A stretch of 64,000 nucleotides of DNA from Bacteroidia bacterium (GTDB lineage: Bacteria; Bacteroidota; Bacteroidia; AKYH767-A; OLB10): NCBI GenBank assembly GCA_016788185.1, contig JAEUTF010000128.1, forward strand, positions 16,500 to 80,499, in the 5' to 3' direction. This document shows, one piece after another, positions 23,602-26,187 of this stretch (the first letter of the stretch is position 1; the number at the start of each line of letters is the position of its first letter). The position numbers and the translations under genes were made by a program. The notes under the pieces are model-generated. The model was not told where the DNA came from. It made no database searches and was given only the letters and a program-made list of their open reading frames with translations.

Positions 23602-25164
23602 TTACTTCGCGTAATTCACGGCCCTGGTTTCCCGGATTACGGTAACCTTTACCTGTCCGGGATAGGTCATCTCGGTCTGGATCTTGTTGGCAATATCGAA
23701 TGACAATTGTTCGGTTTGTTTATCGTCCAGTTTTTCACTTTCCACAATGACACGCAATTCGCGTCCCGCCTGGATGGCAAAAGCTTTCTCAACGCCTTTG
23801 TACGACTGAGCCAGGTTCTCCATTTCCTTCAGACGCTTCATGTACTGCTCCACAATTTCACGTCTTGCACCCGGCCTGGCCCCGCTGATCGCATCGCAGA
23901 CCTGGATGATGGGCGAAAGAATACTGGTCATTTCAATTTCATCGTGGTGGGCACCGATGGCATTGCATACTTCCGGATTTTCCTTCGAGCGTTCGGCCAT
24001 TTTCATGCCGGCAATGGCGTGCGGAAGTTCCATGTCTTCTTCGGCCACTTTTCCGATATCGTGCAGAAGTCCGGCGCGCTTGGCCAGTTTTACATTCAAA
24101 CCGAGTTCAGCCGCCATCAACGCGCAGAGGTTGGCTACCTCACGGCTATGTTGCAAAAGGTTTTGTCCGTAGGAGGAGCGGTATTTCATCCGACCTACCA
24201 TGCGGATCAGTTCCGGGGCCAACCCGTGTATGCCCAGGTCGATGGCCGTACGCTTTCCGGTTTCTACAATTTCCTCGTCCAGCTGACGCTTCACTTTGGC
24301 CACCACTTCTTCGATACGGGCCGGATGAATACGACCATCGGAAACCAGTTGGTGAAGGGCCAGTCGTGCCAGTTCCCGGCGAACCGGATCAAAGCCCGAA
24401 AGGATGATGGCTTCGGGTGTATCGTCAACGATAATTTCTATTCCTGTGGCAGCCTCCAGCGCGCGTATGTTACGGCCCTCACGTCCGATTACCCTTCCCT
24501 TCACTTCATCGTTGTCGATGTGGAATACGGTAACGGCATTTTCAATGGCATGCTCGGTAGCCACCCTTTGAATGGTCTGAATAACGATTTTCTTGGCTTC
24601 TTTGTTGGCCGTCAGTTTCGCCTCATCCATGGTCTCCTTGATGAATTGCATGGCGCCCGTTTTGGCCTCTGCCTTTAACGCTTCCACCAGTTGCGCTTTT
24701 GCATCTTCAGCAGATAATCCGGCAATTTTCTCCAGCGCCTGAACCTGCTTGTGATGGGCTTTGTCCAGGTCTTCTTTTCGGCGATCCACAATCTCCAGCT
24801 GGGAGGTAAGATTGGCCTGCATGGCTTCGAGTTCCGCCTGTTTGCGCTTGTTCTGTTCGATCTGCTGGTTCAGATTCCCTTCCTTTTGCTTTATTCTGCT
24901 CTCCGCCTGCTGAATGTTTTTGTCTTTCTCCGCGATGTGCTTCTCGTGCTCGGTTTTCATCTGATAGAAGCGGTCCTTCGCTTCCATCGTCTTGTCCTTA
25001 AGCAGTATCTCTCCCTTCGCCTGGGCTTCCTTGATGATGGCATTCGCCTTTTCCTCTGCCGCTGCGATGAAGGTCTGGTTGTTTTTCCGGGTGATCAGGT
25101 ATGCAATCAGGCCTCCAATCACCAGTCCTGCAAGCGCCGCTATGATGATGAATATATTGTCCAT
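23602..25164 (-). CDS. rny: Ribonuclease Y
   Basis: 520 aa with an N-terminal TM helix, coiled coil, KH domain ([15 protein letters not shown]) and HD domain (LLHDIGK...GAHH). Confidence 0.97.
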
Positions 25165-25242
25165 TTTTTGAATTTGTCAGGTTATTGAATTGTGTATTGG
25201 CTAGTGTTGATTTCAGATGGATGGGGATGATTTCTCATCCGG

Positions 25243-25419
25243 TGTAAAATATAAAACCCGCATTCGTACGGCCGCGAGTAAACCCCAGAGATCAGGGTCG
25301 GAGTCAGCCGGCTGATTTGCGCTTTCCCGTCGGTGCGGGACTTGCCCTTGGCAGCCTGAGTCTTTCTCCTAGTGGATGTATGTTGAGTTTACATCGCCGA
25401 CCAGTACGAATGCGGGTTT
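25243..25419 (-). ncRNA. Candidate structured small RNA (6S-like by size, shape and position); identity unproven
   Basis: A 16-bp perfect long-range pairing (25254-25269 aaacccgcattcgtac with 25404-25419 gtacgaatgcgggttt) extends inward by about 14 further pairs (ggccgcga/tcgccgacc, gtaaac/gtttac). The helix encloses ~105 nt of GC-rich sequence with several local hairpins. On the minus strand the helix is followed by UUUUAUAUUUU. It lies in a 298-bp non-coding gap between zapA and rny, both on the minus strand. Confidence 0.45.
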
Positions 25420-25462
25420 AAACAGAATGGTTCTGTAAATTCCCAATTAAGAATAAAGAACG

Positions 25463-25756
25463 TTACACTTCCTTACCGAAGGCCTTCACCAGGTCGCAGA
25501 GGTTTTTCAACTCCCTGTTAATCGATTCTTCCTGGCTTTGCTTGTCTTTTTGATAGCCCAGTTGTTCTGCCGCCAGGTGCAAGGAGCACATGGCCATCAG
25601 ATCCTGTACATCCCGGACTCCGAATGCTTTTTCATATTCCTTGAGCCGGAGGTTCACCATCTCCGCTGCTTTTTCCAGAACAGCCTGCTCGGCACTGTCT
25701 ACCTTTAAAGGGTAGGTCCGGTTGGCTATTTGCAGTTTGACAGATGTATTGCTCAC
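25463..25756 (-). CDS. zapA: Cell division protein ZapA
   Basis: 97 aa. VKLQIANRTYPLKVDSAEQAVLEKAAEMVNLRLKEY matches the ZapA fold pattern (I.G..Y.l......E..l..aA..l...l). Confidence 0.85.
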   Translation of the reverse strand: MSNTSVKLQIANRTYPLKVDSAEQAVLEKAAEMVNLRLKEYEKAFGVRDVQDLMAMCSLHLAAEQLGYQKDKQSQEESINRELKNLCDLVKAFGKEV

Positions 25757-25760
25757 GGTT

Positions 25761-26057
25761 TCAATCGCGGTTGATAAGGTGGAGGCATTTATCGATTTCC
25801 CGCAGATAGCGGTTGATCTGATTTTTTAGTTCACGGGTAGACTGGTCGTCTCTACCGTTTATTGCCTGCGCTAATTTAATGGTTTTAACCTGTTCTTTAA
25901 GCTGGTGTACCTCGGTTTCAAGATTTTGTTTTTCAACCAATGCCTGTTGATGCTTTTCCTTTTCATGCCGCAACTGCTTTTGAAGGTCCCGGTGATGATC
26001 CAGGGCGGTCCGCAGCAACTGCGTCAGTTCATCGAGGTGGGCGTATGGGCCAGACAT
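25761..26057 (-). CDS. Small coiled-coil protein upstream of zapA (function unknown)
   Basis: Heptad-rich, charged sequence (LQKQLRHEKEKHQQALVEKQNLETEVHQLKEQVK). ATG at 26057 is preferred to the TTG at 26084. It ends 4 nt before zapA starts. Confidence 0.6.
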   Translation of the reverse strand: MSGPYAHLDELTQLLRTALDHHRDLQKQLRHEKEKHQQALVEKQNLETEVHQLKEQVKTIKLAQAINGRDDQSTRELKNQINRYLREIDKCLHLINRD

Positions 26058-26187
26058 AATACTTTGAAACTGAATTATTGACAAAGATAACCTGATCTTT
26101 CTGATAAAGCAACGATTCCCCTGGTTCTCCTGTCACATTCCGGATCAGCCAGCCTGAAAGCAAAGTGAATCTGCCTATTTTTACCCA

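Follow-up and report, generated by a model that had tools for sequence, protein, structure and literature searches.

A probable 6S RNA gene between zapA and rny in a Bacteroidia genome, related to the 6S-Flavo and Bacteroidales-1 RNAs

6S RNA is a housekeeping RNA, an open-promoter mimic that holds RNA polymerase, and in Escherichia coli its gene lies directly downstream of zapA on the same strand. The canonical family is represented in Rfam by RF00013, which covers the E. coli and Bacillus subtilis RNAs. Among the Bacteroidota, Weinberg et al. 2010 (PMC2864571) suggested that the 6S-Flavo RNA (RF01685) is a 6S RNA. In Flavobacterium psychrophilum it is expressed under the name Rfp82, and 6S RNA levels in that species increase as stationary phase approaches (PMC9723704 and its supplement). 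Bacteroidales-1 (RF01693) is described by Rfam as '6S-Bacteroidales RNA suggested'. It is the 6S RNA of Bacteroides thetaiotaomicron and Segatella copri. In Bacteroides, 6S RNA and its pRNAs have been detected by dRNA-seq (PMC7366714); for S. copri, Bacteroidales-1 is regarded as 6S and its level builds up in stationary phase (bioRxiv 10.1101/2024.04.05.588293).

The window analysed here is a stretch of 64,000 nucleotides from a Bacteroidia bacterium. A sequence-only reading of it had proposed a 6S-like RNA 3′ of zapA and in the same orientation, and this proposal is supported by homology, synteny, single-copy occurrence and covariation. The identity of both neighbours, zapA and rny, was confirmed by Pfam, and both are on the minus strand like the element. 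The gap between them contained 0 ORFs of at least 40 aa, as had been reported. On the evidence of sequence comparison, we put the probability at about 0.9 that positions 25247–25419 of the minus strand are the organism's 6S RNA gene (ssrS), orthologous to the RF01685 and RF01693 RNAs. The element is an annotation gap and not a novel kind of RNA. Homologues were sought with two covariance models, R1, built from an alignment (A1) of the window's genus and one neighbouring genus, and R2, which is order-wide. The features of the locus, in the direction of transcription, were as follows.

25463–25756, minus: zapA, the upstream neighbour (Pfam PF05164, E = 6.4e-16; stop codon 25463–25465)
25455–25462, minus: box CGUUCUUU, directly 3′ of the zapA stop codon
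25422–25436, minus: small hairpin ACAGAA-CCA-UUCUGU, on the upstream side of the closing stem and separated from it by two bases
25247–25419, minus: probable 6S RNA gene (ssrS, Bacteroidota / 6S-Flavo type), matching R1 with 201.7 bits (self-match) and R2 with 158.8 bits
25254–25419, minus: helix-to-helix core, 166 nt
25404–25419, minus: closing stem, 5′ arm AAACCCGCAUUCGUAC, forming 16 perfect pairs with 25254–25269
25385–25392, minus: inner closing helix, 5′ strand GUAAACUC, paired in the minimum free energy fold with GGGGUUUAC at 25278–25286
25381–25388, minus: ACUCAACA, spanning the border of helix and bubble and conserved more than any other motif of the family; predicted pRNA template region
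25370–25384, minus: central bubble, 5′ strand AACAUACAUCCACUA, unpaired in consensus structures
25366–25369, minus: GGAG, 5′ strand of the helix closing the apical domain, which pairs with CUCC at 25300–25303
25304–25365, minus: apical domain, with helices GGCUG/CAGCC and GC/GC and the terminal hairpin UCCCG-loop-CGGGA
25287–25299, minus: central bubble, 3′ strand GACCCUGAUCUCU, which with the next GGGGUUU (25280–25286) can make an alternative hairpin
25254–25269, minus: closing stem, 3′ arm GUACGAAUGCGGGUUU, which with the U-tract has the form of an intrinsic terminator
25247–25253, minus: U-rich 3′ tail, part of the 6S RNA gene
23602–25164, minus: rny (RNase Y), the downstream neighbour (Pfam PF12072, RNase_Y_N, plus KH and HD)

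The element shares the strand of zapA and lies 44 nt past its stop codon. The predicted length of the RNA is about 166–170 nt, with end positions taken from sequence and homology.

A search of Rfam had been suggested as a check, and it found no match to any family, 6S families included, at gathering threshold for the whole window, an outcome named beforehand as counting against the proposal. Within 25100–25550, a search at E ≤ 10 returned chance-level snoRNA and lncRNA matches and none to a 6S family. The gathering thresholds that the window copy failed to reach are 85 bits for RF01685, 60 bits for RF01693 and 46.4 bits for RF00013. The same three models gave no match in the whole genome, RF00013 being searched to E ≤ 10, and so produced no competing 6S candidate. 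Since the window copy itself had no 6S-family match at E ≤ 10, its membership rests on the models built here and is transitive. The missing Rfam match on the window reflects narrow Rfam seeds; the cut-off of RF01685 was passed in one of the 151 sampled Bacteroidia genomes, and that of RF01693 likewise in one of 151.

Eight further loci, seven relatives from other genera of the order and one Flavobacteriales zapA locus, were scanned with 4227 families at E ≤ 1. Only three matches were returned, all of them on the element, all to 6S families and all below threshold. The best relative was matched by 6S-Flavo with 33.9 bits, relative L078 by Bacteroidales-1 with 31.2 bits, and relative L057 by RF00013 in an end-to-end alignment with 25.2 bits (E = 0.098).

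Reciprocal model searches and a shared locus connected the element to seed-type members of RF01685. Genuine RF01685 loci from other Bacteroidia scored 85.2, 76.2 and 73.2 bits, and at genuine 6S-Flavo loci the gene order orf107-zapA-RNA-rny was identical to that of the window. R1 matched the 6S-Flavo loci L096–L098 over their full length, at the same place and on the same strand, with 52–57 bits (E = 4e-13 to 5e-12). The Bacteroidales-1 RNAs are more divergent in sequence from the window RNA than is 6S-Flavo, and R1 matched them with 18–22 bits only. R2 matched the RF01693 locus L100, which passes the Rfam cut-off with 182.8 bits, on the same strand and coordinates with 36.5 bits (E = 7e-8), and other Bacteroidales-1-like loci with up to 75 bits. 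The window RNA, 6S-Flavo and Bacteroidales-1 are matched by shared models and therefore form one homologous family, and RF01685 and RF01693 appear to be one family. These matches to bona fide 6S-Flavo and Bacteroidales-1 RNAs provide the homology evidence for a 6S identity. In addition, one single locus (L099/L104; genome G244, contig C1, 875160–875333) was matched by RF01685 with 49.3 bits, by RF01693 with 41.1 bits and also by R2.

The distribution of the element was that expected of a housekeeping 6S RNA, with broad conservation at one copy per genome. R2 gave a single match in the organism's own 3.2-Mb genome. Among 19 other genomes of the genus that were searched, 18 carried the element at 84–94 % identity, which is high for a spacer. 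Across the order, R1 found exactly one sense-strand copy each in 120 of 146 genomes, representing 33 of 40 genera, with homologue lengths of 167–231 nt; across the class, R2 found exactly one copy each in 46 of 151 sampled genomes. The homologues of the order sit almost always between zapA and rny. Of 57 oriented loci, 53 had a co-oriented zapA upstream and 56 a co-oriented rny downstream. Many of these loci have a further gene before zapA, a small conserved coiled-coil-like ORF named orf107. Synteny with zapA and rny was also sought at the Bacteroidales-1 loci examined and was not found there.

Several observations concern the neighbourhood and the sampled loci in their own right. In the window, orf107 (25761–26084, minus, 107 aa) lies directly upstream of zapA, is rich in E, K, Q and L and has no Pfam match. 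Flavobacterium loci also have it together with zapA (tblastn E = 5e-8 to 7e-7), and it may encode a conserved partner of ZapA, such as a ZapB-like protein. Its real start is probably an ATG 27 nt past the listed TTG, as the listed TTG overlaps a promoter box. One locus (L022, CAZPCA010000055.1) comes from a public MAG titled 'uncultured Bifidobacterium sp.' and has a Bacteroidota zapA-6S-rny locus with a ZapA identity of 71 %; this label looks wrong or the bin contaminated.

Folding and covariation analyses, both proposed beforehand as checks, were performed on the element and its relatives. The minus strand of 25235–25440 (206 nt) folded in RNAfold with −79.6 kcal/mol, compared with −54.6 ± 4.3 kcal/mol for 200 dinucleotide shuffles, none of which was as stable (z = −5.86). 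The fold of the plus strand was weaker (z = −4.04). From a plain MAFFT alignment of 55 diverse sequences, RNAalifold obtained 6 pairs only, because the variable stems were misaligned, and a model-guided alignment (A4, 49 diverse sequences) took its place. Covariation in A4 was strong. Standard pairs occupied 92.8 % of cells, against 76.4 % in column shuffles and 33–51 % with slid partners; both-sided changes occurred in 37 of 41 pairs, and the covariation score of 0.466 fell to about 0.05 with slid partners. The fitting of A4 to the model's own structure somewhat inflates the pair counts, and the margin is still large. Whole-helix replacements were visible in the raw sequences, for example CAUUCGUAC/GUACGAAUG versus CAUAAAUUC/GGAUUUAUUG.

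The same comparison identified the strand of the RNA as minus. Frequent G-U wobbles are found on this strand, with one pair being U-G in 42 of the 49 A4 sequences, and such conserved wobbles would be A-C mismatches on the plus strand. The GCGGG and U-run, kept in nearly all homologues, likewise point to the minus strand because they sit at its 3′ end.

The paired 5′ and 3′ ends form a long irregular closing stem of the kind seen in 6S RNAs. Its 16 perfect pairs, noted previously in the plus-strand sequence between 25254–25269 and 25404–25419, were verified, as was the interrupted inward continuation through ggccgcga/tcgccgacc and then gtaaac/gtttac. This closing helix encloses about 135 nt and, as described, is followed on the minus strand by the U-tract UUUUAUAUUU at 25247–25256. 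In A4, helix 1 (the closing stem) was paired in 94.3 % of cells, and 15 of its 15 pairs varied on both sides; over helices 1–3, pairing was 94–96 % with both-sided changes in 20 of 24 pairs. An irregular middle section separates the closing stem from the inner closing helix (helix 3), which was 96.1 % paired and showed compensatory changes from C-G to U-A or A-U.

Prediction and comparison together gave a large two-strand central bubble, with strands unpaired in all consensus folds and lengths of approximately 15–22 nt on the 5′ side and 13–17 nt on the 3′ side. At its border, every column of ACUCAACA was either invariant or conserved to at least 90 % in a set of 55 sequences, 6S-Flavo among them. 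The words of this motif stand at the start of the RF01685 consensus and also within the RF01693 consensus. The 5′ strand of the bubble keeps its length, and its sequence is variable beyond ACUCAACAY.

Beyond the bubble lies an apical stem-loop, and helices 4–7 covary at all pairs. Helix 4 (GGAG/CUCC) was 92.8 % paired, with four of four pairs varying on both sides, for example to GGGG/CCCC, and the apical helices 5–7 were 78–93 % paired with both-sided changes at each pair. The small hairpins of the interior fared differently in the comparative structure. The cccg...cggg hairpin proposed earlier is the apical hairpin and covaries. The palindrome tcagccggctga does not act as a local hairpin, as one half of it, CAGCC, belongs to a helix with a GGCUG some 40 nt upstream, in which five of five pairs covary. 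The tgccaagggca hairpin also found no place, its conservation ending at the genus. In the window the apical domain amounts to a simple stem-loop, shorter than that of most relatives, many of which have a branched domain with one or two extra hairpins.

A second pairing is available to the 3′ side of the bubble. The 3′-bubble hairpin had −6.3 kcal/mol in the window and was possible in 46 of 49 homologues, with a mean of −5.5 kcal/mol and a mean z of −3.0. It competes with the inner helix for the same GGGGUUU, which indicates a potential for refolding only. In Flavobacterium orthologues the competing arm AAACUUG almost copies the 5′ strand AAACUCA; this likeness is the arrangement expected for pRNA-triggered release, a mechanism that would apply here by inference.

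The element could be compared feature by feature with the described families. It shares with 6S-Flavo the core words ACUCAACAY ... GG(A/G)G ... C(U/C)CC ... (C/U)UG ... G(G/A)GUUU, and in both the two ends form a closing stem followed by a U-tract. The RF01685 model, with 108 positions, describes the core only and leaves out the closing stem common to all members. The closing stem reads CCCGC.../...GCGGG in the window and CUGCCUAC.../...GUAGG in Flavobacterium, the 3′-bubble hairpin is ACCC/GGGG in the window and AAACUUG/CGAGUUU in 6S-Flavo, and the G+C content is 54 % in the window compared with 33–37 % in 6S-Flavo. Bacteroidales-1 has in common with the window RNA the words AACUCAnCA and GGAGUUU and an end of UGCGG and a U-tract. 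With canonical 6S RNA, the window RNA has no significant sequence similarity. It does share with it the size class, the closing stem, the central bubble, the apical stem and a 3′-bubble strand that can form a hairpin upon opening of the inner helix. The predicted order of closing stem, bubble and apical stem is the 6S design. The same-strand slot 3′ of zapA is shared with E. coli, whereas the gene downstream is rny in the window and ygfA in the canonical system; the apical domain, often branched among the relatives of the window RNA, is a simple rod in canonical 6S.

How the RNA is produced was considered from the sequences upstream. In 56 of 57 loci, the 130 nt before the RNA contained no exact Bacteroidota −7 box (TAnnTTTG), and a standard promoter of its own, as for an independent gene, is therefore unsupported. 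An exact TAnnTTTG match, TATCTTTG, lies at 26082–26089 on the minus strand, just before orf107 and about 670 nt upstream of the RNA. An equivalent box was present 668–751 nt upstream of the RNA in 14 of the 15 loci with enough flank. The stretch from zapA to rny held none.

Just past the end of zapA stands a strongly conserved CGTTCTTTGA box, also written CGTTCTTT(GA). Of 62 loci from at least two orders, the window's order and the Flavobacteriales, 59 have the core GTTC[T/A]T, and the box is often followed by AAGGG or AAGUUUG; the GTTC[T/A]T box is not enriched genome-wide. The box might serve in processing, bind a protein or belong to a non-canonical promoter. Neither a −33 nor a −7 role suited the CGTTCTTTGA box, its distance to the mature 5′ end at the 6S closing stem varying from 22 to 104 nt. 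The Bacteroidota −33/−7 spacer is 19–21 nt, and a TTCG word at the end of zapA, only about 12–17 nt upstream of the box by eye, was also a poor −33/−7 fit. All members of the genus and most other genera have a hairpin where the window has the one at 25422–25436; its sequence is unrelated from case to case, and a U-tract is mostly lacking. The window's hairpin could mark the end of the zapA transcript or belong to a precursor leader.

The RNA may thus start at a non-canonical promoter of its own and have its leader trimmed, or it may be released from an orf107-zapA transcript, and processing of the zapA 3′ UTR may be the route of its production. A more specific proposal, which we hold tentatively and regard as rather unlikely in its entirety, is that 6S RNA in Bacteroidia outside the Bacteroidales is the middle module of an orf107-zapA-6S-rny unit. 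The sole canonical promoter would lie about 670 nt upstream, the CGUUCUUUGA box and the hairpin would direct 5′ processing or a non-canonical start, and the closing stem, as a terminator, would gate RNase Y.

The only serious alternative to a 6S RNA is a cis-regulatory leader or attenuator of rny, in which the terminator-like stem would control read-through, instead of or beside a role in trans. A place just upstream of rny would suit a cis-acting leader, rny follows on the same strand in all but one of the 57 loci, the element ends in a terminator-like stem and U-tract, and the interval between the RNA and rny is without an exact TAnnTTTG in 55 of 57 loci. However, the Bacteroidales-1 RNA at L100, of a class validated as 6S with pRNAs (PMC7366714), has no detectable rny or zapA within 1.5 kb, and the RNA therefore persists without rny. 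The architecture and conserved motifs are moreover those of 6S families, and the helix of 16–30 bp is constitutive, with no evident alternative antiterminator. We consider the leader explanation improbable, and a secondary cis effect of the closing-stem terminator on rny possible.

Even less probable is that the element is the intrinsic terminator or a structured 3′ UTR of zapA that yields no stable functional RNA. Its same-strand position 44 nt past the stop codon, its end in a stem and U-tract and the lack of a canonical promoter box between zapA and the element would fit, but a terminator would not account for a covarying interior of 135 nt that includes a motif both invariant and unpaired. 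A separate small hairpin is already present between zapA and the element, and the homologues 6S-Flavo and Bacteroidales-1 are expressed RNAs. The perfect 16-bp inverted termini about 135 nt apart also recall a miniature inverted-repeat transposable element (MITE) or a REP-like repeat. This was rejected as having a negligible chance, given one copy in the 3.2-Mb genome and an orthologous, syntenic occurrence in 33 genera with covarying arms.

The action of the proposed 6S RNA can be outlined from the 6S RNAs of E. coli, B. subtilis and Bacteroides. Polymerase binding and pRNA templating by the window RNA are inferred by analogy. The rod with its bubble would mimic an open promoter and sequester the housekeeping RNA polymerase holoenzyme, chiefly in stationary phase. 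On outgrowth, the polymerase would read the 5′ strand of the bubble as a template and make a short product RNA, predicted to be roughly 5′-GUUGAGUUUAC and complementary to GUAAACUCAAC. This product would invade the GUAAACUC/GGGGUUUAC helix, and the freed GGGGUUU strand would snap onto the ACCC of the 3′ bubble. The resulting hairpin would collapse the bubble and release the polymerase.

The value of the finding lies in annotation, as the three Rfam 6S models miss the 6S RNA of the whole order and of most sampled Bacteroidia. With the model built from the window locus, 120 of the order's 146 genomes yield a single copy each, and 6S-Flavo and Bacteroidales-1 are united. Mechanistically the RNA is ordinary, and the understanding of 6S RNA action is unchanged. 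The deep conservation of zapA-6S-rny, together with the post-zapA box, provides a handle on 6S production in the Bacteroidota. If the tentative operon arrangement were true, polymerase sequestration, cell division and bulk mRNA decay would be coupled in one operon.
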